A DNA stretch of 64,000 nucleotides from Vulcanimicrobiota bacterium. Lineage in GTDB: Bacteria; Vulcanimicrobiota; Vulcanimicrobiia; Vulcanimicrobiales; Vulcanimicrobiaceae. Made by a program: the position numbers and the translations under genes. Numbering within the stretch: position 1 is the first letter of the stretch; each line of letters begins with the position of its first letter. The stretch is from NCBI GenBank assembly GCA_963714015.1, contig OY970223.1:640001-704000 (forward strand), in the 5' to 3' direction. Of this stretch, positions 44,252-57,186 are shown piece by piece. Under the pieces are notes generated by a model, which was not told the origin of the DNA, ran no database searches, and saw nothing but the letters and a program-made list of their open reading frames with translations.

Positions 44252-44668
44252 TCATACGACGTTTGGCCTATTGGACCCCCGTCCTATGTACCGGCGAGCG
44301 ATTAGCAACGCCGCATAATCGTCGATCGGGCGAGGCGGAAGCTGCAATCCGATGGGAAGGAGCCGGCGCCAGCCGCGTGGGGGGTTGTCTGCAAAGTAGA
44401 GGGCGCGGGCCCGGTACGTCGTGTCTGTTTCGTCCACGAGGTGGACGGGGAGTCCCAGCGTCTCGACGACGCCGACTACTACACCCGCGTTCGTCCCGGC
44501 ACCGAGCGCGACCGCGGTGACGTCGTGCTGCGCAATAAGGGGCGTTAGACGCTCGATCAGGGTCTCCACAGGGACGATTCCGAGCGCTAGCGCCGCAGAA
44601 ACGCGATCGGCGGCGACCGCGTAGCCGACTTTGCGGGTGCCGGGATCGATTCCAAGGACGGCGCTCAT
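44252..44668 (-). CDS. RuvX/YqgF family RNase H-fold nuclease
   Basis: VLGIDPG..KVGYA, LGAGT, VDETDTT..AR..YF and IDDYAA. Confidence 0.88.
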   Translation of the reverse strand: MSAVLGIDPGTRKVGYAVAADRVSAALALGIVPVETLIERLTPLIAQHDVTAVALGAGTNAGVVVGVVETLGLPVHLVDETDTTYRARALYFADNPPRGWRRLLPIGLQLPPRPIDDYAALLIARRYIGRGSNRPNVV

Positions 44669-45630
44669 CGTTGCGGCGCCTGCTGAAGCGTGACCACCAC
44701 CGGAACCCCGAAGGTCGACTCGTAGATGTCCGAAGCCGCGAAGGCTGTCAGGATGTAGGTGCCGGTCGTAGAGGTAAGCGTCTTCTGCATGTGAGCTTCA
44801 TCGGGCAGCATACGCCGTACCGTGACGTTGCCGGCGAAATATGGAAGCATTTGGTGCTGAATCATGACGCGCGGAACCCAGCCGGAGGGTCCCAGCAATT
44901 CGATCAAGGCGACACGGGCGTCGGCGTTCTTTCCGGCCGGAATCTGCTCGGATTCGATGGGCTGGCCGGCCGGGACAATCAACTTGTCCGGCACGGAGTT
45001 CATTGCAAAATGGATTTGGTCGTGGGGATAGAGATTTTGCGAGGCGGTTGCCAGCAGCAGAACGTTGTTTTGCGAAACGTAAGCCTGCATCTTCGGATCG
45101 TCGGCGTACTGGCGCAGGATGCTTTCGACGCCATGCGGCGGGACGAAGGGCTTGAGGTTGTAGGGGGGACGCGTGTACTGTTGATTGATCGACGCGACGG
45201 TCTGGTTGTAAAAGTCGCGGACGATCTGCCGGCGCAGCGCCGATGGCGCGTTCATCGGAATCCTTCCGACGACCGGGCTCATCAGCGATTCATAGTTCAC
45301 CAGCACGGGTGAGGTAGTGAACTTCTCCTCCAGAGCATTGGCGCGCGCCTGCGCCTTCTGAATCTCGGCGTTGATCTCGTTGAGGTGGAAGAACGCGGTT
45401 TGCACCTGATTCGAGGCGAAGATCGCAATCAGCATGATCACCAGTGCAATGATCATACCGGTTCCGACCGCGATGATCGTCGACGTGTATCGCGGCCGGA
45501 TGTTGAAGATCGTCAACCGCTTGCGCCCGACCTGGTGTCCGACGCGATCGCCGATGTAGGCGATGATACCAGCCAGAATCGCGATGAACACGATGAGGCC
45601 GATCCCGCGCAGCATTCCTTCCAGCGTCAT
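44665..45630 (-). CDS. DUF3084 domain protein
   Basis: GIIAYIGDRVG..VGRKRLTIFNIRPRYT signature; coupled to lptFG and the RuvX-like gene. Confidence 0.85.
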   Translation of the reverse strand: MTLEGMLRGIGLIVFIAILAGIIAYIGDRVGHQVGRKRLTIFNIRPRYTSTIIAVGTGMIIALVIMLIAIFASNQVQTAFFHLNEINAEIQKAQARANALEEKFTTSPVLVNYESLMSPVVGRIPMNAPSALRRQIVRDFYNQTVASINQQYTRPPYNLKPFVPPHGVESILRQYADDPKMQAYVSQNNVLLLATASQNLYPHDQIHFAMNSVPDKLIVPAGQPIESEQIPAGKNADARVALIELLGPSGWVPRVMIQHQMLPYFAGNVTVRRMLPDEAHMQKTLTSTTGTYILTAFAASDIYESTFGVPVVVTLQQAPQR

Positions 45631-46734
45631 ATCATTGCCGCCCGGTACAGCCGGCGCCCGCCGATGACCGTGAAGATGAGATTGGGGAGCCACGCCGCCA
45701 GCGCCGCAAGCGGCAGAAACGCTTCACCGACGTACGAACAGATCGTCGAAACGATATAGTAGGCGAACACAATTAGGACCGCAAGGCCGAAGCCCAGCCC
45801 GGTGCTTCCGCCGCCCCGAACCGAACGGATTCCGAACGGCACGGCAATCAAGGTGAATACGAAACACGCGAACGGCTGCGCCAGCTTCTGCTGGTACACC
45901 ATCGTGTACTTGCGAATCTCCCCCGCCGAGAGTTGACCGGTCCGAATGATCTCGGCGATCTGCGCGCGGCTCATGTTCTGGGGATTGTTGTTCGCTACGC
46001 GTTTGGCAATCGCGGCCGGGTTTTGCCCGAGCGAGACTTGGAGGGAGGGCGTACGCACGTCCGTGTCGCCGTTTGCCTGCAGCCGGATCACGCGCGCGTT
46101 CTGCAGCGTCCACTGGTCGGCCAAGAACTGCGCCTGATCGGCGAAGACGATCTGCGTCGGGTTTCCGGAGCGATCGTACTGAACGAGCGTGACGCCGACC
46201 AACGTGCGGCAGTTTTGCAGGCAGGCGCGTTCGAACGTCGTCTGCCTTCCGCCGCCCGGCAGCGGCGCAGAGATCAGTTGATCGCCACCGAAGGCGCTCG
46301 TGTGATTGATTACGACGGCTTCGATGATGCTGGCTTGGCTGTCGGCAAACGGAACGACCGCCTCTTGCAGCGCAAGCGTAACGAAGGAAAGAAAAAACGC
46401 CGCCGCGAGCATCGGCGCGATGATCCGCAGGAACGTAATTCCAGCCTGATTTGAGGGCTGTAATCTCACTCTCGCCGGAGAGGCGCTGAATGGCCAGGAG
46501 CGTGCCGAGCAGCAGTCCCATGGGGATCGTCAGCACGAACATGCTCGGTAACTGCCAAAGAAAGACTTCGATTGCCGCCCAGACCGGTGCGTTGGTTTCG
46601 GAGACCTCCCGCCCGATCGCGATGATCTGACCGGCCGCCAGCAGCAGCGTAAAGGCGGCAACACCGAACAGGAACGGGCCGCTGAGCTCGCTGAGCATGT
46701 ACCGATCCAGAATCGTGAGCCGCAAAGAGTTCAA
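45627..46734 (-). CDS. LptF/LptG family LPS export permease; +1 frameshift near 46445
   Basis: ILDRYM..E...PFLFG and RLSGESEITALK, then in the shifted frame GITFLRI...PFAC.VF.LIAVP...AAWLPN. Confidence 0.9.
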
Positions 46735-47465
46735 AGACGAAAGCCTTCGCCGAGATAAAACTGGCGCGCGATCGGACTCTCGAGCACGTCGTGCGCCGTG
46801 CCGGAGACTTCGATCTTTCCGTTGTTAAGAATGTACGCCCGGTCGACGATTGCGAGCGTTTCGCGAACTTGATGGTCCGTAATCAGCACGCCCAAACCGC
46901 GTTCGCGCAGCTGCCGGATCATCGCTTGGATATCGGCGACCGCGATCGGATCGATGCCGGTGAACGGTTCGTCCAACAGCAGAAACGCGGGCTCCGTAGC
47001 GATCGCGCGCGCTATCTCGACGCGCCGGCGCTCGCCGCCCGAGAGCGAATCGCCGCGCGCGTCGACGAATTTGAGCAGGCCGAATTCCTCGAGCAGCGGG
47101 TGAAGGCGCTCTTCCTGCTCTTCGCGCGAGACGCCGTGCATCTCCCAAATCAGACGAATGTTGTCGCCGACGGAGAGTTTGCGAAAGATCGAGTTCTCCT
47201 GCGCCAAGTACCCGATCCCGCGGCGCGAACGCATGTACATCGGCGCCGACGTAAGGTCGAAGTGCTGCGTCTCCGTATCGAGCAGCACCGTTCCGCCGTC
47301 GGGTTTGACCAGACCTACGACCATGTAAAAGGTGGTCGTCTTTCCGGCACCGTTGGGACCCAGCAAGCCGACAATCTCGCCCGTGCGCACTTCGGCACTG
47401 ACGCCGTTGACCACCGCGCGCTCGCCGTAGCGCTTGAGGAGTCCGCGCATTTGAATCTCGGGCAC
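46731..47465 (-). CDS. lptB: LPS export ABC transporter ATPase LptB
   Basis: GPNGAGKTTTFYM, GYLAQE.SIFRKL, LSGGERRRVEIAR, LLDEPF.GIDP and YLGEGF. Confidence 0.96.
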   Translation of the reverse strand: MPEIQMRGLLKRYGERAVVNGVSAEVRTGEIVGLLGPNGAGKTTTFYMVVGLVKPDGGTVLLDTETQHFDLTSAPMYMRSRRGIGYLAQENSIFRKLSVGDNIRLIWEMHGVSREEQEERLHPLLEEFGLLKFVDARGDSLSGGERRRVEIARAIATEPAFLLLDEPFTGIDPIAVADIQAMIRQLRERGLGVLITDHQVRETLAIVDRAYILNNGKIEVSGTAHDVLESPIARQFYLGEGFRL

Positions 47466-48013
47466 TACTGCATCACCATCTGCGTCAGCTTCACGTCCGA
47501 AGTGAACGTGTTTCCGGTCAGAAGTTCCTGTTGGCCGCCCTGCATGCCGGTTATTCGCACGTGTCCCTCTCCGTGAAGCATGGCGGTCGTCTGATCGTAC
47601 GTGAGCCGGTCGCACGTCAAGTGCAGACCGGTGCTCGTCGTCGCGCGAACTCCGCCGGAAAGGACCACCTTCTTGTCCCGCGCGATCGCAGCGGTCGGAG
47701 CCGCCGCCTGCAGCCGCGTACCGTCTTTGTCAAAGAACGTTACCGTCGTTTGCTGAAAATTTGCTTGGGCCAGGTTCTGAGCGGAATGGCTCTCGCAGGA
47801 CTGCGCCAGCATCTCATACGCTTTCCGGTTGCCGGACTGCTGCGTGATGCGGACGGGCCGGGCGCGCGTCCCGCGGCACCGTATGTCGAGCGGCGGCAGA
47901 CCGCTCGGACTTGCAGCCGGACCGGGCGTTCCCCCCGGCCTTCGCTGCGGCTGCGGATTGCACGCCGAGCATGCAAGGACCGCCGCGAGAGCCCAAATCA
48001 GGGTCCCCTTCAT
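47465..48013 (-). CDS. lptC: LptC-like periplasmic LPS export lipoprotein
   Basis: Lipobox (CSAC), beta-jellyroll-like pattern (LSGGV.A..., LTCDRLTYD, GHVRI); directly upstream of lptB. Confidence 0.75.
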   Translation of the reverse strand: MKGTLIWALAAVLACSACNPQPQRRPGGTPGPAASPSGLPPLDIRCRGTRARPVRITQQSGNRKAYEMLAQSCESHSAQNLAQANFQQTTVTFFDKDGTRLQAAAPTAAIARDKKVVLSGGVRATTSTGLHLTCDRLTYDQTTAMLHGEGHVRITGMQGGQQELLTGNTFTSDVKLTQMVMQ

Positions 48014-49206
48014 GACTCCTCTCCCAAGCCGTCATCGGCCGCCGCGAGTGCGAGCGCCATAGCGGGCATCCACAATCCGAAGATCACGATGCTCACGGTA
48101 TCGATGAGCCCTTGCACCCACGTTCCGGCAAGTCCCGCCGCGACCGCGAAAGCCAGCACGCGGCCGGTCTGCGAAGCTCCCCGCAGCCGATCGCGCAGCG
48201 TCGTCGCGAATCTCCACCACGCCGCAAGAACGGCAACCAGCCCGACGATCCCGGTTTCGGCAAAAATGGTCAGCAGAAAGCTGTGCGCGTGAAAGGCAAT
48301 CGCGTCGCCGTCGGGCAGCCGCACCAGCGGGTAGATTCGGGCAAAGTCGAACGGCCCGACGCCGGTGAGCGGAAAGCGCCGCACAATCTCCAGTCCCGCT
48401 TCCCAAATCGAAAGACGGGTGTAGTTTTCCGCCGGATTGTGGTGGGCGTTGAATACGACGAGCACTGCGGCCAGACCGGCCAGAAGGATCGCGGGAGCGA
48501 ATCGCCGCTGCACGTTCCCGCTGAGATAAGCGTAAAACGCGATTGCCGCGGCCAAACCCATCCAGCCCGCGCGAGAAAAAGTTAACACGAGGGCAGCGAG
48601 TCCGGCTGCGATCGCGATGCAGGCGATTATCCGCAGAATACGATCGCGTGCAACGCGCGCGAGCGCATATGCCAGCGGCAAGAAGACGATGAGATACCCC
48701 GCGAGCTCGCCCGGCAGAACGAACGTTCCGATCGCGCGCCCATGCCCAATGGCGTACTGATCCGCGGGAAGCCGCAACAGCACCATGACGACCGCCGCCA
48801 GCGATGCCATTGCGCCCGAAACAAGAAACGCGTAATAGATCGCGCGGCTTGCTCCGGGATATGTATAGTAGCGCAGGACGAACAAGTGCCAAATGACGCT
48901 GACCGCCGCTATTCCCAGAAACAACAGCCCGCCCGCGGGATCGAATCCCACGAGTGCCGACAATACGCCGGACGCAACCCATGCAACCAACGGGACGAGT
49001 GTCGGCGGACGCTCGACCGGCGGCCGCAGAATCATTGCTGCGAAATACGACCCGAGCAGGGCGCAAACTGCAAGCAGTGCGATGCCCGCGGTGCGCGGGA
49101 CCAGCGACACTCCGGGAACCGAAACGACGGTCAGCATGATGAACGCGGGGAAGAGCGGCACAATGAAAAACGCGAGCGCCAAGCTTGCGGGGATTAGTCG
49201 TTTCAC
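48010..49206 (-). CDS. O-antigen ligase (WaaL/Wzy_C) family protein
   Basis: RAIGTF..P..LAGY, LTFSRAGW, R..IW......FPLTGVG and HAHS. Confidence 0.9.
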   Translation of the reverse strand: MKRLIPASLALAFFIVPLFPAFIMLTVVSVPGVSLVPRTAGIALLAVCALLGSYFAAMILRPPVERPPTLVPLVAWVASGVLSALVGFDPAGGLLFLGIAAVSVIWHLFVLRYYTYPGASRAIYYAFLVSGAMASLAAVVMVLLRLPADQYAIGHGRAIGTFVLPGELAGYLIVFLPLAYALARVARDRILRIIACIAIAAGLAALVLTFSRAGWMGLAAAIAFYAYLSGNVQRRFAPAILLAGLAAVLVVFNAHHNPAENYTRLSIWEAGLEIVRRFPLTGVGPFDFARIYPLVRLPDGDAIAFHAHSFLLTIFAETGIVGLVAVLAAWWRFATTLRDRLRGASQTGRVLAFAVAAGLAGTWVQGLIDTVSIVIFGLWMPAMALALAAADDGLGEES

Positions 49207-50333
49207 GCGATGAGCTGCGCAATCTCGGCTGCGATCCGTTTTGCAGCACCGGGAGGTCCCATCCGTTCGCGTCCCGCGGCCGACATGGCGGCGCGCCGTT
49301 TTTCGTCCGCCAGCAGCTGTGCAACTTCCGAGGCCGCCGAGCGTTCGTCCCCGGCTACGACCAAAAGGGCCTCGCCCAGAAGACCGGCTTGCCTATGCCG
49401 GTACCACGCATGTTTGCCGCGCTCGCTGGTTGTGAACGCGATCACGGGAATGCCGGCGGCGGCGGCAGCTTCGTTTGCGGTCCCCGCCTGCCCGAGCACA
49501 GCATCCGCGCCGCGCAGCATTGCACCGATTGGGCCGCGCCAGGCGCGCAGCATTTCACGTCCGCCGGCCAGGGCGCGGAAAGGAGCGGCCGCATCGGCGA
49601 CGACTTCGAAGCCGGCCGATACCACGGCGCTAGCCATGCGATTTGCGTCCAGCCCGGGCGCGATCGAAAGCGCCGCTCCGAGCGACGGTTGCTCGCGCCC
49701 GAGCTCGCGTACGACGCGTGCGAGAAATTCTGCGGCGGCGTACGCGTCCTGGCGGCTTCCCGGGAAGAGCGCCAAATACGGCGCGAACGCATCATTGGGC
49801 GAGGGCCCTTCGTCCTGATAGAGATCGACGATCACGTTGCCGCTTCGCGCCGCTATACCGTGCCGGCGAAGGCGCTGCGCCGTCGGTTCGTCGCGCACGT
49901 ATACCACGGCCGCCTTACGGATCACGCGCTCTTCGAATGCACCGTAAGGCGCGACATACACGCTCTTTGCGGTTCCGACGAAAGCCGTGGCCGCTCGCGC
50001 CTGGAGTGCCATCATCAGTGCGAACACGTCGCCGACCGCGATTACCGCCGCATACTCCTTGCGGGCACGACGCAGAAATCGCAATTGCGTCAGCGTATGC
50101 GCGGCTAACCCTGCACGCAGATCGCGCAGGATGTTTTGCGCGTTGCCCATGGCGATGAGGCCGCCGCTCGGCATTTGCCGGCGAGGTCCCACGTCCCGCA
50201 TAACACTCGGGTGCTCAAAATCACCGACCAGCGCGAGATGATCGCCGGCAGCCGCCTGCGTCAATTCGGCAGCGATTTGCGCCGCTATGGCGACCTCGCC
50301 GTGGCCGTTCGAAACGAAGAGCACGCGTTTCAT
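49203..50333 (-). CDS. Lipid-A-disaccharide-synthase-related GT-B protein (TIGR03492-like)
   Basis: LFVSNGHGE, MPSGG, AVGD, FVGTAKS, VRDEPTA, FPGSR, AGTANE and RMGPPGA. Confidence 0.85.
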   Translation of the reverse strand: MKRVLFVSNGHGEVAIAAQIAAELTQAAAGDHLALVGDFEHPSVMRDVGPRRQMPSGGLIAMGNAQNILRDLRAGLAAHTLTQLRFLRRARKEYAAVIAVGDVFALMMALQARAATAFVGTAKSVYVAPYGAFEERVIRKAAVVYVRDEPTAQRLRRHGIAARSGNVIVDLYQDEGPSPNDAFAPYLALFPGSRQDAYAAAEFLARVVRELGREQPSLGAALSIAPGLDANRMASAVVSAGFEVVADAAAPFRALAGGREMLRAWRGPIGAMLRGADAVLGQAGTANEAAAAAGIPVIAFTTSERGKHAWYRHRQAGLLGEALLVVAGDERSAASEVAQLLADEKRRAAMSAAGRERMGPPGAAKRIAAEIAQLIA

Positions 50334-51046
50334 ACGCCGAGCAGCGGGCGCAGAGCGAATTCGCGCAACGTCCAGCGCCCTTGCGCGTAAGCGATGTCGC
50401 TTTGCGATACGAATTTGCCGTATGGACCCGCGTGCACGATCGGAACGCCGGCAATGACTTCGGGCTGCGCAAGCGTGTCGTGACTGTGGCCGCCCAATAA
50501 TAGCGTGATTCGCGGCACCGCCGCTGCGAGTTTGCGATCGAGGCGCAGACCGATGTGCGAAAGCACGACGAGCGGTTCATCTTGGGGAAGGCTGCACGCG
50601 TATTCGCCGACGACAGTCGCCGGATCGAGAAATCGCCAGCCGAAAACGCGCTCCCACGGACTGCCGGCCGGGTACTGCATAACGAGCAATCCGAGCAAGT
50701 GCACGCGCACGCCGCCGCTTTCAATGACGTGCGATCGTAAAAAGGGCAGTTCCCGCTCCTTGAGATCCACGAGGTTGCTGCAGATCAGCGGATGCCGCAT
50801 CCGTGCAGCTCGCGCTCGAACGCAGCCGAAGACGTAATGAAACTCCCGGTTACCCATGGCCTGCGCGTCATAGCCGGCGGCGTCGATCTCGCCGATGATC
50901 GGCTCTTGGCGGTGATAGACCGTTTGACTGCCGCGCAGTGAGTCGCCGCAGTCGAAGAGCAGCCCGGACTCCCGTTCGCGCAGCGCGCGCAGCGGTGCCT
51001 CGATCCCACGATGATCGTGAAGATCAGAGGTGTGGTAAATCCGCAC
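50330..51046 (-). CDS. Calcineurin-like metallophosphoesterase (5'-nucleotidase N-terminal-like)
   Basis: HTSDLH, DCGD, GNRE, LSHIG and GGHSH; its GTG overlaps the corrected lpxB stop. Confidence 0.9.
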   Translation of the reverse strand: MRIYHTSDLHDHRGIEAPLRALRERESGLLFDCGDSLRGSQTVYHRQEPIIGEIDAAGYDAQAMGNREFHYVFGCVRARAARMRHPLICSNLVDLKERELPFLRSHVIESGGVRVHLLGLLVMQYPAGSPWERVFGWRFLDPATVVGEYACSLPQDEPLVVLSHIGLRLDRKLAAAVPRITLLLGGHSHDTLAQPEVIAGVPIVHAGPYGKFVSQSDIAYAQGRWTLREFALRPLLGV

Positions 51047-52162
51047 TACCCGGCACCTTTGCGCGCCGCCGCTACGACGAACGCAGCGCATTGCCGGAGC
51101 GCGTCGTCTGAACCAAGCGCCGCGCGAAGCTCCGCCAGCGCGGCGTATTGCTGGGCCGGATCGTGCAGAGATCTCGTCCATCGCGGTCGACAAGTTGGCC
51201 GGCGTCGCGCGCTCCTGCAGAATCTCCGGCACGATTTCGCGCCCGAGTACCAGGTTGGGAAGCGTGAAAAAACGCCGGGAATAAACTTTGCGCACGTAAC
51301 GTTCGAGCAGCGGTGAGACGATGTACATTGCCGCGCAAGGCACGCCGGAAAGCGCACATTCGAGCACGGCCGTACCTGACGCAACCCACGCTGCGTCGGC
51401 CTGCGCGATTGCGGCACGGGTCCCACGAGCGAACGTCACATCGTTCAGCTGCGCGCGCGCCGCCGCAGACCGAAGCTCGCGCTCAATGCGTTCGTCAGGC
51501 GCACCGATAACGGCGCGGGCGTACGGGCGTTTGCGTTTCAGATCGCGAAATGCGTTCAGCAGCGCCGGCACGTGATACCGCAGTTCGGCCGGGCGGCTTC
51601 CCGGGAGAATCGCCACTGTGCCGCCGTCCCGCGGCGGCGCTTCGCGCGGCGGACGCATCGCATATTGTGAGGCGAGCGGGTGGCCGAAGTATGCCGCTTG
51701 CAATCCGCGTGCGGCGTAAAACTCGTGCTGATGGGCGAATGCCGTAAGCGGCAGCGCAACTGCAGCAACGGCGCGCGCCGTACGCTCGGAGTCCAGCCAC
51801 GCGCCGGGCGGGAAGAGATCGACGATCGTGCCGCCGTAGTGCATGCGGCGCAGGCGTTGCGCGAGCCGCACGTTGAACGCGCCGAAGTCGACGAGCACCA
51901 GCACGTCGGGTTTACTCGCAAAGATATGGCGCGTCGCGGCTTGCCATGCGAAGTACAGCTTCGGAATCTTGGGAATCGCGGCAAACGGCCCGAACGAGGC
52001 CCAGCCCGTGTTTTCGCGCCACACCGTAAAGCCGGCTTCACGCATCAGGCCTGCGCCTATTCCTTCGAATTGCGCGTCCGGATCGATTTGCGCAATTGCT
52101 TGCGCCAACACGACGGCGGCGAACTCTCCCGACGCCTCGCCGGTCGAAAAAAAATACCGCAA
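51046..52162 (-). CDS. lpxB: Lipid-A-disaccharide synthase LpxB; +1 frameshift near 51170
   Basis: STGEASG, LVDFGAFN, GHPL, LPGSR..E, SGTAVLE and LPNLVLG..IVPEILQ. The true C-terminus ...LRAALG...* ends at 51046. Confidence 0.9.
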
Positions 52163-52189: not shown

Positions 52190-52960
52190 TCATTTCAGCA
52201 GGACGCCGCGCTGCGATTCCCCTTCCAGAAACTGCAGCATATGCCGGCCCGAATCGGTAGCCGCTTCGGACTTCATCACCTCGAGCGCTTCCGCCAAACG
52301 CAACTTCGAACCGTTGAGCAGCTTGTAGAACTTTTTGATCTCGGCTCGGTCTTCGTCGCTGAAGCTGGCGCGCCGAAGGCCGACGCTGTTCAATCCATAC
52401 GGTACGGCCGGGTCGCCTTCGACGAGAAAATACGGCGGAATGTCGCGGCGCACTTTACTGGCGCCCCCGACGAACGCGTAGCGCCCTACGCGGACGAATT
52501 GATGAAATCCCGCCATGCCGCCGATCGTCACGTTGTCTTCGACGAAGCAATGTCCGGCAAGCTGCGCCAGGTTGCTCATCGTCACGTTGTTCCCGACCTC
52601 GCAATTGTGCGCGATGTGCACGTACCCCAGCAGCAAACAGTCGTCGCCGACGACCGTTGCTTGGTCTTCTCCCGTCGCGCGCTGAATGCTGACGTACTCC
52701 CGAATGACCGTACGGCTTCCAATTCTCGTGTACGCGCGCTCGCCTTCGTATTTTTTATCTTGCGAGGCGGCTCCGATGGTCGCGAACGGATAAATCCGGC
52801 TATCCTCGCCGATCGAAGTCCAGCCGTTTACCACGACGTGCGCTTGCAGCACCGTCCCGCGTCCGATCGACACGTTCTCTCCGACGACGCAATACGGACC
52901 GATCTCGACGCCGCGATCGAGTTTCGCATTCGGATGGACGATCGCCGTCGGGTGGATCAT
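52190..52960 (-). CDS. lpxA: UDP-N-acetylglucosamine acyltransferase LpxA
   Basis: IHPTAIV, hexapeptide repeats, IREYV, HIAHNC, LAGH, HQF and GLNSVGLRR. Confidence 0.97.
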   Translation of the reverse strand: MIHPTAIVHPNAKLDRGVEIGPYCVVGENVSIGRGTVLQAHVVVNGWTSIGEDSRIYPFATIGAASQDKKYEGERAYTRIGSRTVIREYVSIQRATGEDQATVVGDDCLLLGYVHIAHNCEVGNNVTMSNLAQLAGHCFVEDNVTIGGMAGFHQFVRVGRYAFVGGASKVRRDIPPYFLVEGDPAVPYGLNSVGLRRASFSDEDRAEIKKFYKLLNGSKLRLAEALEVMKSEAATDSGRHMLQFLEGESQRGVLLK

Positions 52961-53102: not shown

Positions 53103-53576
53103 TCAAGCATGCAGCACCGTCGCGTCAAAACCGAAGAGCCGCGGATCCGACGCAATTGAAAACATGAGTTCCGCCGAGACGACGAATTGATCTTCTACGC
53201 GTCCTTCGGCATGCACCCAGCCGATGTTGCGCTTGTGTTTGGTCAGGCGCACTTCCATCATGAAACGATCGCCCGGCACGACGGGGCGGCGGAATTTGCA
53301 CGCGTCGATACCGGCCAGGTACGGCGTCTTGCGAGAAAATTCGCCGGGCTCCAGGACGACGGCGCCGCCGAGCTGCGCAAGCGCTTCGATCATGTAGACG
53401 CCGGGCAGGAGCGGATTTCCCGGGAAATGCCCCGTGAATACGGGCTCGGTCGCGGTTACGTTCTTGTAACCGACGGCGCGCACGCCGGGCTCTAATTCCA
53501 CGATCCGATCGACCAGCAGAATCGGATAGCGGTGCGGCAAGATCTCCATGATCTGCCGGATGTCGAGTTCAGCCAA
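53103..53576 (-). CDS. fabZ: 3-hydroxyacyl-ACP dehydratase FabZ
   Basis: LPHRYP.LLVDR, F.GHFP..P.LPGV..IEALAQ and KFRRPVVPGD. Confidence 0.96.
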   Translation of the reverse strand: MAELDIRQIMEILPHRYPILLVDRIVELEPGVRAVGYKNVTATEPVFTGHFPGNPLLPGVYMIEALAQLGGAVVLEPGEFSRKTPYLAGIDACKFRRPVVPGDRFMMEVRLTKHKRNIGWVHAEGRVEDQFVVSAELMFSIASDPRLFGFDATVLHA

Positions 53577-53578
53577 GG

Positions 53579-54421
53579 CTATTGCACTTTCGCAGCCGGC
53601 AGAGGATTTTGGCGAAGCTTGCGCAGCTCGCTCGTGGCGAGGCAGTGCAGCTTGTGACCGCTCTTGATCGCCACGATCTCGCATTGCGGATATGCGCCGA
53701 GCAGCGCGAAGTCTCCAAGCAGGTCGAGCACTTTATGGCGCACCGGCTCGTCGGGCCAGCGCAGTTCCTGCATGGGTCCTTCGGGCGCAAACACCACGGC
53801 GTTCTCGAGCGTACCGCCCTTGGCCAGCCCGCGATCCAGCAGCGCCTGCACTTCGTGCAGATATCCGAACGTGCGCGCAGCCGCTATTTCGCGCTCGAAC
53901 ACGCCGGAATCCATTTCGGCGTCAAAGTATTGCGCACCGATGGGCGGAGCAAAGTCGGCGATGAAGCGCACGCGCAAACGCGCGGCGGGAAGAATGACGA
54001 TCGCGCGGTCGCCGTCCCGCAGGAAGACCGCCGAGAGCGGGACGTACGTCTCGCGAACTTCTTTTTGCCGGACGGTGCCGGCTTCATGGATGCGATCGAC
54101 GAAGAACTTGGCGCTGCCGTCCGCGACGGGAATTTCCGGACCGTCGACGTGGATCTCGGCGTTGGCAACTCCCGTTCCGAACAGTGCGGAAAGCAGATGC
54201 TCGACCGTGGAGATAGTGACGCCGTCTTTGCCCAAGACCGTTGCGCGCGCGGTTTCGACGACGAACTCGGCCAGAGCCGGAATGTTTACGCCGCCGGAGC
54301 GAAAGACGAATCCCGAATCGGGAGCCCCGGGACGCACTTCAATGCGGCAAGCAGCGCCGCTATGCAGTCCTACGCCGTGCACTTCGAACGCGTTGCGCAG
54401 CGTGCTCTGGTACTGCGTCAC
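53579..54421 (-). CDS. lpxC: UDP-3-O-acyl-GlcNAc deacetylase LpxC
   Basis: GVGLHSG, TVEHLLSAL, ARTFG, HKVLDLLGD and SGH. Confidence 0.97.
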   Translation of the reverse strand: MTQYQSTLRNAFEVHGVGLHSGAACRIEVRPGAPDSGFVFRSGGVNIPALAEFVVETARATVLGKDGVTISTVEHLLSALFGTGVANAEIHVDGPEIPVADGSAKFFVDRIHEAGTVRQKEVRETYVPLSAVFLRDGDRAIVILPAARLRVRFIADFAPPIGAQYFDAEMDSGVFEREIAAARTFGYLHEVQALLDRGLAKGGTLENAVVFAPEGPMQELRWPDEPVRHKVLDLLGDFALLGAYPQCEIVAIKSGHKLHCLATSELRKLRQNPLPAAKVQ

Positions 54422-54424
54422 CGT

Positions 54425-55453
54425 TCAGCGTCCGCTGTCTTTTTCTTCGAGCGCCTCGACACGGGCAACCAGCTTAGGCAGGTCTCGAAGCATGACCTCT
54501 CGTCTGAGGTCCTCCCGATGCGGCCGTGCCGGCGTGCCGCTGACGAATGCGTCGTCCGGAAGGTTGCTCCATACCCTCGCGCCCGCTGCAATTTTCACGC
54601 GAGAACCAATGGTAATGTGTCCTTTGAAGCCTGACTGGCCGCCGACCAGCACGTAGTCTCCCAGAATGGTGCTGCCCGCGAGACCCGTTTGAGCGGCCAT
54701 GCCGACGCCGCGCCCGATGCGGCAATTATGTCCGACCTGGCACAGGTTGTCGATTTTGGTGCCGTCGCCGATCTGCGTACTGCCCGTTTGCGCGCGGTCG
54801 ATGCACGTATTGGCGCCAATCTCGACGTCGTCGCCCAGCACCACGTTGCCGACTTGCGGAATCCGCTCGAACCGGCCGTCGACGAAGACGTAGCCGAACC
54901 CGTCGCTGCCAACGGTCGCGCCGGCTTGCAGAATCACCCGATCGCCGGCGACGCACTCGTCCAAGATGCGCGCGTGCGGATGAAGAATCGCATCGGCGCC
55001 TACTCGCGCGTCTTGCCCGACGTACGTCCCTGCTTCGAGTACCGTTCGGTCACCGACCACCGCACCGCGGGAGACGACGACGTGGGGCCCGATGTACACG
55101 TCCTCACCGACTTGCGCCGAAGCTTCGACGATGGCGGAAGCATCGCGATACGGACCGCACTTTCGAGGACGATCGAACTCACGCAGAAGTTCCATCAGCG
55201 CGATGCGCGCGCTGGCGACGCAGATGAGCGGCTTACGGGCGTCGGTCATGCTTTCGACGAGGGCTTCATCGACGATAATGGCGGCGGCTCGCGACTTCAG
55301 GGCTGCCTGCAGATAAGCCGGGGTCGTTGCGAACGTCAGGGTCCCCGAATCAGCCTCGTCGATAGCCGCTATACTTGCGATGCGCAGGCCGGAATCGCCG
55401 CGAACCGTTCCGCCTACCCGCCGCGCAAGATCGGCCAGCGTTCCGAGGCTCAT
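54425..55453 (-). CDS. lpxD: UDP-3-O-acylglucosamine N-acyltransferase LpxD
   Basis: GSDGFGY, IPQVG.V, VEIGANTCIDR and TKIDNLCQVGHN. Confidence 0.97.
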   Translation of the reverse strand: MSLGTLADLARRVGGTVRGDSGLRIASIAAIDEADSGTLTFATTPAYLQAALKSRAAAIIVDEALVESMTDARKPLICVASARIALMELLREFDRPRKCGPYRDASAIVEASAQVGEDVYIGPHVVVSRGAVVGDRTVLEAGTYVGQDARVGADAILHPHARILDECVAGDRVILQAGATVGSDGFGYVFVDGRFERIPQVGNVVLGDDVEIGANTCIDRAQTGSTQIGDGTKIDNLCQVGHNCRIGRGVGMAAQTGLAGSTILGDYVLVGGQSGFKGHITIGSRVKIAAGARVWSNLPDDAFVSGTPARPHREDLRREVMLRDLPKLVARVEALEEKDSGR

Positions 55454-55460
55454 CGGCGCT

Positions 55461-55871
55461 TTACGGACTGGACGAAGGCGACGGCGAGGTCTCCGTGATC
55501 CCCAGAATCTTTTCCACGTCCGGAGTGATGTCGGTTCCGCCGTATCCGATGAATTCGCGGGTCAGCACGAGCCGCAAATTCTTCTGCTGCGCGACCTTCT
55601 GGGCCGCGTCTTTGATTTGATCGACCAGCTGTTGGGAAATCTTGCCGTACTTGGCCTGCAACTGCATCGCCTGCGCACGCTTCTGCGCGGTGGACTGGTT
55701 GCCTGATTCGACGGCGCGCTCGTCGGCCATCAGTTGGTTCTGAGCATTGTTGTACTGCGGCCAATTGGCGGTCAACCGCTGAACATCCAGAAGTCCCACC
55801 GGACTCGATTGCGCAGCGCATCCGCTCAAAAGCGCGGCCGCGAGGGCGATAATCGTGCGTTGCTTTTTCAC
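55461..55871 (-). CDS. Short OmpH/Skp-like lipoprotein
   Basis: Lipobox LSGC, VGLLDVQR and C-terminal YGGTDITPDV. Confidence 0.8.
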   Translation of the reverse strand: MKKQRTIIALAAALLSGCAAQSSPVGLLDVQRLTANWPQYNNAQNQLMADERAVESGNQSTAQKRAQAMQLQAKYGKISQQLVDQIKDAAQKVAQQKNLRLVLTREFIGYGGTDITPDVEKILGITETSPSPSSSP

Positions 55872-57186
55872 TGGTTCAAACTCTCTATGTCCTTTTCGAC
55901 GTCGTCGGTCAGGTCGATGCCGCCGCTTGCGGCGGTGACGTGGCTGAAAACTACCGTCAGACCGCGCTTTGCCGCCTCGGTGTGCGCGTCGTTTGTGATC
56001 TGATCGACCATCTTGCTGTACAGATCGTCGCGCTGGTGCTGAAGGTCGGCAAGCTGTTTGGCCGCTGCGCCCGTCGCCACGGAAGTGGCTCCCTGCAGCG
56101 CCGAATACTGCGCGTCCAAGTCGTCCTTCGTGGCTTGATACTGCGCGATCGTCTTTTGCGCGTCGGCTTGAAACTCCGACTTGAACTGTTTGTCGATCTG
56201 CGCGAGCCGATCGCGAGTCGAAGCCGGCAGATTGGATGGAATCGGCGCCGGCCGCAGGCCTTGCAGTCTGCGAGGAAACCTGCTGCGAGACTTCGTTCTG
56301 GCGCGAGGAGATCTTCGCGGCGGTTTGACTGTGAATCTTTGCCGCCTGGGCGGCGATATCGCGCTGCGTTGTGGAGGCGAGCTGCTTGCGATATGCCGCA
56401 AGGGTTTGTTGATCTCGCCGGCGCTGCGCAGCGACTGCACCGTTTTCTTGCTCTTGAATTGCGCTTCAGCTGGTTGCGGTACTGCGCGCGCGTGGCATCG
56501 TCCATGGCTAGGTTGTTCAGTTTCGTTTGGAGATCGAGCTTCTTGGAGGCGTCTTGCTGCGAGAGGTTGAGCGCGAGTTGCGACTCTTGTTCGTTCAGCT
56601 CGGTAGCCTTCTGGCGAAACGACTGCTCCGCCCGCAATTGGAGCTGCCGGCTAATCTGGGCGACGGCGGCGTTGTCTTGAGCAACGACCGTAGTACGATA
56701 GTTTTGAAAGTCGGCGTTCGCTTCCGACGTCACGGCCTGCGCCTGTTGGGCGGTCGTGGTCTGCATTTGCGTGAGCGCCTGGTTGCCGTTCGTTCCCGAT
56801 GCAGCCGAACCGAGCGCTGCATCGATCGCCGCTTGTTCGCGGCGCGCATAATCGACCTGCTTTTGGCGAAGGATTGCCGAAGCGCGGTTCTGAGCCTGCT
56901 GCAGTTCTTGATTGAGCTCCCGGGTCTGCTGCGCGATCTGCGCGCTCGAGCGAGGGACCGCGGACGCCCCAAGCGATTTCAGGTCCAGGGCGTCAATCGC
57001 ATCCTGAATCTGAGAGAGTCGCGTGTAAAGCGGGTGCTTCTTGACGACGTCGTCCAGCCGGACGTACCCGATTCCGCGTACGTCGGCATCCGTCGCCTTT
57101 TGCTCGTGCGCGCAGCCGGCGACAAAAAGCGCTGCCAAGACGGCCGGCAACATCACCCCGAACTTACTTGAGCCCATTTTGGACAT
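55868..57186 (-). CDS. Long coiled-coil OmpH/Skp-like lipoprotein; two +1 frameshifts (~56465, ~56270)
   Basis: Lipobox VAGC, IGYVRLDDVVKKHP, Q/A coiled coil and C-terminal GLTVVF....GGIDLTDDV. Confidence 0.75.

Follow-up and report, generated by a model that had tools for sequence, protein, structure and literature searches.

A short metallophosphoesterase from Eremiobacterota lipid A operons, bearing the active-site arginine of LpxH, is a candidate UDP-2,3-diacylglucosamine hydrolase

The window analyzed here is a stretch of 64,000 nucleotides (GenBank assembly GCA_963714015.1, contig OY970223.1, positions 640,001 to 704,000) from a soil Eremiobacterota genome assembled as a single contig of 3.56 Mb, with a marker completeness of 89.6%. 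Directly downstream of lpxB, it encodes a short metallophosphoesterase with a GNRE motif, and the best reading of its function, to which we give about even chances, is the hydrolysis of uridine diphosphate (UDP)-2,3-diacylglucosamine to lipid X, which LpxB needs to work. We infer the substrate, and the core of the case comes from comparing sequences: an LpxH-like substitution that is invariant, set on another scaffold, encoded in lipid A operons and present in genomes that seem to have none of the enzymes known for this step. A first-pass annotation of the window had proposed the same function and coupled the gene to lpxB. As a hypothesis, this interpretation is partly supported, since it passes the computational tests that were run, with TIGR03492 and lipopolysaccharide (LPS) genes, rather than lpxB, as the conserved partner. 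The gene and its distinguishing codons are, in window coordinates:

50330..51046, minus strand: short GNRE metallophosphoesterase, 238 residues, candidate UDP-2,3-diacylglucosamine pyrophosphatase (translation, NCBIfam, Pfam, AlphaFold2 model)
50843..50854, minus strand: GNRE codons, residues 65-68, with Arg67 in place of the catalytic His of GNH[ED]

The open reading frame (ORF) extends on the minus strand from a GTG start at 51046 to a TGA stop at 50330, and its 238-residue product, with the N-terminus VRIYHTSDLHD, presents a complete set of metallophosphoesterase motifs (D8-x-H10, D32-x-G-D35, G-N66-R67-E68, H164 and G-H187-x-H189), the GNRE element being located where the first-pass annotation had read it. 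Among NCBIfam models, those of 5'-nucleotidase type matched the protein only partially and far below threshold (SoxB, 1.1e-22; UshA-like, 6.2e-14; UshA, 1.6e-11; also CpdB), and the LpxH and LpxG (NF033458) models gave no match at E<=0.1; likewise, no LpxI domain was matched in Pfam. The score for Pfam Metallophos (PF00149) is 20.6 bits against a cut-off of 21.5, which many relatives exceed, and residues 1-189 align with positions 1-189 of the 191 in this profile. The C-terminal domain of 5'-nucleotidases (PF02872) was not found by Pfam, the chain stopping at residue 238, and the onset of motif I at residue 8 excludes a signal peptide and leaves no room for an N-terminal helix; the earlier statements on both features are thus borne out. 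Judged by its sequence, the phosphoesterase is a cytoplasmic protein with the fold of a 5'-nucleotidase N-terminal domain.

The closest solved relative by sequence is the T. thermophilus 5'-nucleotidase (4e-08). Pairwise alignments place a His in the phosphoesterase at the position of the Asp that follows GNHEF in this enzyme and in CD73, and the family differs from solved 5'-nucleotidases in having His or Asn there. We superposed an AlphaFold2 (AF2) model calculated from 22 relatives (predicted local distance difference test score of 96.7) on known structures using VIA. The superpositions on 2z1a (Z of 27.4, root-mean-square deviation of 2.4 over 228 aligned residues) and on UshA (1ush; Z of 26.1) both span the full length of the phosphoesterase, from residue 1 to 238, and LpxH (5b49) ranks 41st, with a Z of 10.8 and 160 residues aligned. 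Foldseek concurs, placing 5'-nucleotidase and UshA nearest (E of 1.2e-17), with no LpxH chain among the PDB matches listed. The predicted helices correspond to the peripheral helices of the 5'-nucleotidase N-terminal domain. Both methods applied to the AF2 model therefore uphold the 5'-nucleotidase-type scaffold claimed in the first-pass annotation, as opposed to the LpxH fold.

To characterize the family, we searched for relatives with the single protein and with a profile. The single-protein search returned 1736 proteins at E<=0.001; the best 120 of these are 237-257 residues long, the three with organism names are Eremiobacterota, and the source annotations read 5'-nucleotidase or 2',3'-cyclic-nucleotide phosphodiesterase. 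GNRE is present in all 22 aligned relatives and in 32/32 loci across the phylum, at identities down to 31%, and D8, H10, D35, N66, R67, E68, H164, H187 and H189 are invariant in the 22-sequence alignment. The profile search, against 1.84 billion representatives, yielded 25073 relatives. Among the best 150 of these, the 64 proteins of at most 300 residues all carry GNRE and are all too short for PF02872, and 82 of the 86 longer proteins carry GNH[ED]; the four long exceptions are a fusion of a metallophosphoesterase (MPE) to TIGR03492 with GNRE, two other proteins with GNRE and one with GNQE. A FastTree phylogeny of 178 domains, in which the motif columns were kept and the rows were the best matches to the family's own profile, places the 95 GNRE proteins in one clade (support 100, stem 0.50) beside the 83 GNH[ED] domains, a result in line with the tree check suggested earlier; two seeming exceptions to this split were traced to faults of the motif search. 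These comparisons indicate that the His-to-Arg change is coupled to the loss of the C-terminal domain and that both have a single origin.

When named genomes were scanned, close Eremiobacterota relatives accounted for all of the 80 top-scoring loci. For genus g33, the best matches of the single-protein search are ordinary long 5'-nucleotidases, and the profile search recovers a divergent short GNRE form in 5/5 genomes tested. This variant (L113:1501-2319; L114:1501-2340) is 273-280 residues long, about 40 of them inserted behind the CSNL motif, keeps GNRE and adjoins TIGR03492.

The portions of Okada et al. (PMC5016852) available to us describe LpxH as alone among metallophosphoesterases in having, in all species, an Arg at the position of the motif III His, and report that this residue, Arg80, forms a bidentate salt bridge to the lipid X phosphate (the beta-phosphate in the substrate). 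Arg67 is invariant and Arg80 sits at the same position, in agreement with the LpxH-like His-to-Arg variant noted in the first-pass annotation. Like LpxH (TIGR01854; PDB 5B49), the protein is a calcineurin-like two-metal phosphoesterase of about 240 residues, predicted to be cytoplasmic, with Arg for the conserved His of motif III, a gene among lipid A genes and the same proposed reaction. It is nevertheless only a distant structural relative of LpxH with no sequence-family match, and its model lacks the inserted helical domain in which LpxH buries the lipid X acyl chains. With UshA and other 5'-nucleotidases (1USH, 2Z1A; NF007109) it shares the fold of the N-terminal catalytic domain and the metal ligands, but it differs from them in having no signal peptide, no PF02872 and GNRE instead of GNHE, and in belonging to a separate clade. 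A further parallel is LpxG of Chlamydia (NF033458), a metallophosphoesterase that, according to the accessible part of its report (PMC4807358), was recruited to this step separately from LpxH and, unlike the present protein, retains GNHD and has an N-terminal transmembrane helix. LpxG came to light in a complementation screen with an E. coli lpxH conditional-lethal strain. LpxI (PF06230/PF17930) shares the proposed step and belongs to an unrelated family.

The genome encodes lpxA, lpxC, lpxD and lpxB according to Pfam, which confirms the content of the cluster as first described and adds fabZ to it. Profile searches of the whole 3.56-Mb genome gave no match to LpxH or LpxI at E<=1, and the LpxG profile, with its cut-off of 350 bits, reached only 16. 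The other four metallophosphoesterases of the genome are a CpdA/SpdA-like protein with a twin-arginine translocation (Tat) signal, a YfcE-like protein, a frameshifted ApaH/YfcE-like protein and a YmdB-like protein. We extended these searches to 121 sampled genomes of the phylum. LpxC was found in 120 of them, and LpxH, LpxI and LpxG above cut-off in none (0/121 each), so that the absence of the three enzymes, first noted for the cluster, extends to this genome and, at these cut-offs, to the whole sample; a match to the phosphoesterase was obtained with the single-protein search in 121/121. LpxK was also missing (0/121), and WaaA was matched once (G110:C203:2271-2762), probably on a foreign contig, because the metagenome-assembled genome in question has 9% contamination. 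In the genome studied here no WaaA, KdsB or KdsD was found, that is, it has no pathway for Kdo (3-deoxy-D-manno-octulosonic acid).

A comparable situation has been described in Cyanobacteria and Dictyoglomi, for which the available text of Opiyo et al. (2010, PMC3087551) gives a four-enzyme lipid A pathway with the gene order lpxD-lpxC-fabZ-lpxA-lpxB. The cluster analyzed here is alike in this order and in its lack of LpxH, LpxK and WaaA, and it is unlike that pathway's cluster in that the GNRE phosphoesterase and TIGR03492 follow lpxB. As identified with Pfam and NCBIfam, the genes of the lpx/lpt region are all encoded on the minus strand:

54425..55453, minus strand: lpxD (Pfam LpxD and Hexapep)
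53579..54421, minus strand: lpxC (Pfam LpxC, 1.5e-83)
53103..53684, minus strand: fabZ (Pfam FabA, 7.8e-29)
52190..52960, minus strand: lpxA (Pfam Hexapep and Acetyltransf_11)
51046..52162, minus strand: lpxB, lipid A disaccharide synthase, frame broken in the assembly (Pfam LpxB, 1.2e-51, residues 4-328)
51168..51168, no strand: extra assembly base frameshifting lpxB (public contig and the continuous LpxB of relatives)
49203..50333, minus strand: TIGR03492 "lipid-A-disaccharide synthase-related protein", 376 residues (9.4e-65 in NCBIfam; 218.8 bits, cut-off 219.2)
48010..49206, minus strand: O-antigen ligase-like membrane protein, Wzy_C (Pfam, 1e-19)
47465..48013, minus strand: lptC-like gene (Pfam LptC, 9.5e-08)
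46731..47615, minus strand: lptB, ABC ATPase (Pfam ABC_tran, 3.8e-33; 64-68% identity in the operons of relatives)
45627..46734, minus strand: lptF/G permease, split by a second frameshift (profile positions 1-86 and 87-353 in two ORFs)

The genes for LpxB, the phosphoesterase and TIGR03492 are consecutive, with overlapping stop and start codons: the last base of the lpxB stop (TAG, 51048-51046) is also the first base of the GTG at which the phosphoesterase gene starts, and the stop of the phosphoesterase gene overlaps the ATG of the TIGR03492 gene (ATGA, 50330-50333). Across the phylum, down to 31% identity, the phosphoesterase gene lies within the lpx operon in 29/32 loci, with lpxB upstream on the same strand; it is directly adjacent to lpxB in only 15/32. 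TIGR03492 directly follows it on the same strand in 31/32 loci and in the 5/5 g33 genomes, hence in 36 of the 37 genomes examined. The linkage to lpxB put forward in the first-pass annotation thus stands as a lipid A operon context, but not as adjacency, in which TIGR03492 is the tighter partner. The phosphoesterase and TIGR03492 genes are 13 kb apart in G002 and on different contigs in G032, and contig ends preclude an adjacency call in G009, G023, G028 and G096.

In two loci from other classes of the phylum (L021:4730-6981 and L018:7714-10212), three genes separate lpxB from the phosphoesterase gene: a second LpxB-like paralogue (387-438 residues), an LmtA-like membrane methyltransferase and a gene of about 170 residues without assignment. 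The best NCBIfam match of the operon methyltransferase is the model for Leptospira LmtA (lipid A 1-phosphate O-methyltransferase), at 49-59 bits, far below cut-off, and a homologue is found in the present genome at C1:231635-232096. Going by this match, the methyltransferase may hint at retention of the 1-phosphate.

A large second branch of the family is found in operons of another type. From 20 divergent GNRE proteins of the short form we built a profile and retrieved 80 metagenome loci with it (L123-L202), and all nine named relatives among the 120 matches listed for this profile are Armatimonadota in at least one source. Neither TIGR03492 nor lpxB was found in any of the 80 loci within the available DNA, and TIGR03492 is adjacent in 0/46 loci with at least 1.5 kb of downstream sequence, so that the proposed coupling to lpxB does not extend to the family as a whole. 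The operon order in this branch is kdsD (SIS and CBS domains), kdsC (HAD), the MPE gene, a GT-C glycosyltransferase gene (PMT_2, about 630 residues) and another GT-C gene. KdsC is encoded upstream in at least 41/58 loci, KdsD upstream in at least 31/47 and GT-C downstream in at least 41/46; these counts are lower bounds, as the adjacency windows missed cases visible by Pfam. The operon sometimes lies a few kb from lptB, lptC and lptFG. A Kdo-related role, suggested by the kdsD and kdsC neighbors, was considered and rejected, given that the genome studied here lacks WaaA, KdsB and KdsD. As far as gene content indicates, what the two contexts have in common is LPS and lipid A, and not Kdo or lpxB as such; with no Kdo pathway in the present genome, a role common to both contexts should be sought in the core pathway of lipid A.

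Under the favored reading, the protein would be a two-metal cytoplasmic phosphoesterase derived from the catalytic N-terminal domain of 5'-nucleotidases and UDP-sugar hydrolases, and the step of LpxH, LpxI and LpxG would be carried out by a fourth, independent lineage. In the chemistry of this scaffold, a metal-bound hydroxide attacks the alpha-phosphate of a nucleotide or UDP-sugar, and UshA splits UDP-sugars into sugar-1-phosphate and uridine monophosphate. The same attack on UDP-2,3-diacylglucosamine would amount to the LpxH reaction. Arg67 could grip the phosphate on the sugar side (beta), like Arg80 of LpxH, and the membrane or a partner protein may stand in for the lost nucleotide-binding C-terminal domain.

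Several observations weigh against this reading. The model shows neither an LpxH-like helical insertion or cap nor any other obvious acyl-chain pocket, and, because both such a cap and the nucleotide-binding C-terminal domain appear to be missing, the recognition of the lipid and the nucleotide of the substrate is left unexplained. The tightest conserved neighbor of the phosphoesterase is TIGR03492 and not lpxB, and two apparently clean MPE-TIGR03492 fusions, P0141 (650 residues) and P0288 (640 residues), occur in short-read assemblies; from this linkage and these fusions it follows that the phosphoesterase may serve the reaction of the TIGR03492 protein itself. Weak, sub-threshold LpxG-like phosphoesterases are present in 60/121 genomes (at most 84 bits per piece, against the cut-off of 350). 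Such matches occur in only 2/51 other sampled genomes of the same class (52 including the present one, G000), and the LpxG profile matches equally strongly in two bacteria that do not produce lipid A, B. subtilis and Lactococcus. Finally, no named cyanobacterial or Deinococcus GNRE protein is found among the best 120 matches listed per search, and for this reason the cyanobacterial four-enzyme pathway may stay unexplained even if the favored reading is confirmed.

Three alternative roles, one tied to TIGR03492, one as a phosphatase and one in housekeeping, jointly retain an appreciable chance, somewhat below even. In the one that survives best, which we nevertheless consider rather improbable, the phosphoesterase is the catalytic partner of TIGR03492 in a different step of lipid A synthesis, possibly hydrolyzing another UDP- or pyrophosphate-linked lipid intermediate bound by this GT-B-fold protein, and lipid X is made otherwise. 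The same-strand adjacency described above argues for this partnership, as do the match to TIGR03492 in 121/121 genomes, which parallels that of the phosphoesterase, the single-chain fusions P0141 and P0288, and TIGR03492 itself, which is probably active because it keeps many invariant residues. Against it, none of the 46 Armatimonadota-type loci with at least 1.5 kb downstream has TIGR03492 adjacent, and the two genes are separated in G002 and G032. In addition, two control genomes, those of Synechococcus elongatus and Deinococcus radiodurans, match TIGR03492 above its cut-off, and no named GNRE relative from these groups appeared among the matches listed. Moreover, this alternative leaves the lipid X step without any candidate. 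The role of TIGR03492 may also extend beyond lipid A, because the D. radiodurans control has it and gave no LpxC match.

The two proteins could also be halves of one machine, fused in a few lineages, a proposal that we regard as unlikely. Here the GT-B-fold paralogue of LpxB would replace the lost C-terminal domain, binding UDP-2,3-diacylglucosamine at the membrane and presenting its pyrophosphate to the two-metal site, and lipid X would then be passed to LpxB, in what would be a Kdo-free and LpxK-free lipid A pathway across the whole phylum. A complex prediction for the phosphoesterase and TIGR03492, with both given as alignments and run without controls, scored 0.00 twice and speaks neither for nor against binding. 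Other LpxB-MPE and MPE-TIGR03492 "fusions" were rejected, as they are mostly singletons with partial domains and resemble frameshift chimeras of noisy assemblies.

A role as a cytoplasmic lipid A or lipid X phosphatase, already named as an alternative in the first-pass annotation, seems distinctly unlikely. Such a monoesterase or diphosphatase would remove the 1-phosphate and produce a phosphate-poor lipid A, as reported for cyanobacteria, and 5'-nucleotidases are indeed also phosphomonoesterases. Consistent with it, cyanobacterial LPS has no phosphate and no Kdo according to the part of Opiyo et al. (2010, PMC3087551) at hand, which describes the same four-gene pathway, and the sampled Eremiobacterota likewise lack LpxK and, with one exception, WaaA. 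Nonetheless, where monoesterase relatives have a His that assists catalysis, this family has Arg, as does the pyrophosphatase LpxH in the available portions of PMC5016852. The LmtA-like gene and the ArnT/PMT_2-like GT-C genes of the operons also suggest that the lipid A phosphate is kept and decorated. Furthermore, the lipid A phosphatases known so far are members of a different family and work on the periplasmic face, and no named cyanobacterial member appears among the matches listed.

Least probable of all is a soluble housekeeping enzyme for nucleotides or nucleotide sugars (UDP, UDP-sugars, 2',3'-cyclic nucleotides or similar compounds) that merely rides in LPS operons, for although the source annotations and the lack of an evident lipid-binding element in the model fit such an enzyme, the family has kept two independent LPS-operon contexts over wide divergence, its gene in the window overlaps lipid A genes at stop and start codons, and an invariant active-site change separates it from the housekeeping enzymes.

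Whole phyla that make lipid A lack all three enzymes known to produce lipid X, and the gap in Cyanobacteria and Dictyoglomi has stood since at least 2010. A literature search turned up no paper dealing with the GNRE family, TIGR03492 or any fourth UDP-diacylglucosamine hydrolase, and the accessible sections of a 2025 review (PMC12444477) name only LpxH, LpxI and LpxG for the UDP-2,3-diacylglucosamine step. If the favored reading is true, the family would be a third independent metallophosphoesterase lineage, and its sharing of the His-to-Arg change with LpxH would be a clear example of active sites that evolved convergently. It would also complete the pathway map for the Eremiobacterota, and probably for the Armatimonadota, and allow annotators to recognize lipid A synthesis in soil phyla that have received little study.

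The reading frames of the region are probably affected by errors in the assembly. A 610-residue ORF at 50330-52162 encodes LpxB for 328 residues, then nonsense and then the phosphoesterase frame, and the genuine C-terminus of LpxB (...LHDPAQQYAALAELRAALG...KGAG) lies in a separate frame that ends with the TAG at 51048-51046. LpxB is continuous across the break in nine close relatives, and the comparison puts one surplus base near 51168. A public contig from a soil run (depth 3.5 and possibly from the same sample) agrees with the window throughout 51043-51224 except that exactly one base, at 51168, is missing from it, and for this reason the extra base is probably an assembly error. With this base discounted, the overlap between the lpxB stop and the phosphoesterase gene described in the first-pass annotation is real, although lpxB itself is not one open frame in the assembly. 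Similarly, positions 1-86 of the lptF/G profile fall in the ORF at 45724-46734 and positions 87-353 in that at 45627-46469, and a third frameshift affects the ApaH/YfcE-like phosphoesterase gene elsewhere in the genome (C1:3409306-3410032); the three are therefore read as assembly indel errors and not as biology. The resulting LpxB-MPE chimera of 571 residues, called on the present genome, is included in the protein collection. Neither a genuine lpxB-MPE fusion nor a programmed frameshift was accepted, on the grounds of the continuous LpxB of relatives, the public contig without the base and the similar split of lptF/G.

Two further genes flank the region:

44665..45693, minus strand: DUF3084 protein, next gene after the lpt genes in the downstream direction (weakly matches slr1601, a cyanobacterial family with a putative role in cell division)
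55868..56440, minus strand: OmpH/Skp-like gene, upstream of lpxD (28.5 bits, below cut-off)

The position of the OmpH/Skp-like gene, 5' of lpxD, recalls classical bamA-skp-lpxD clusters.

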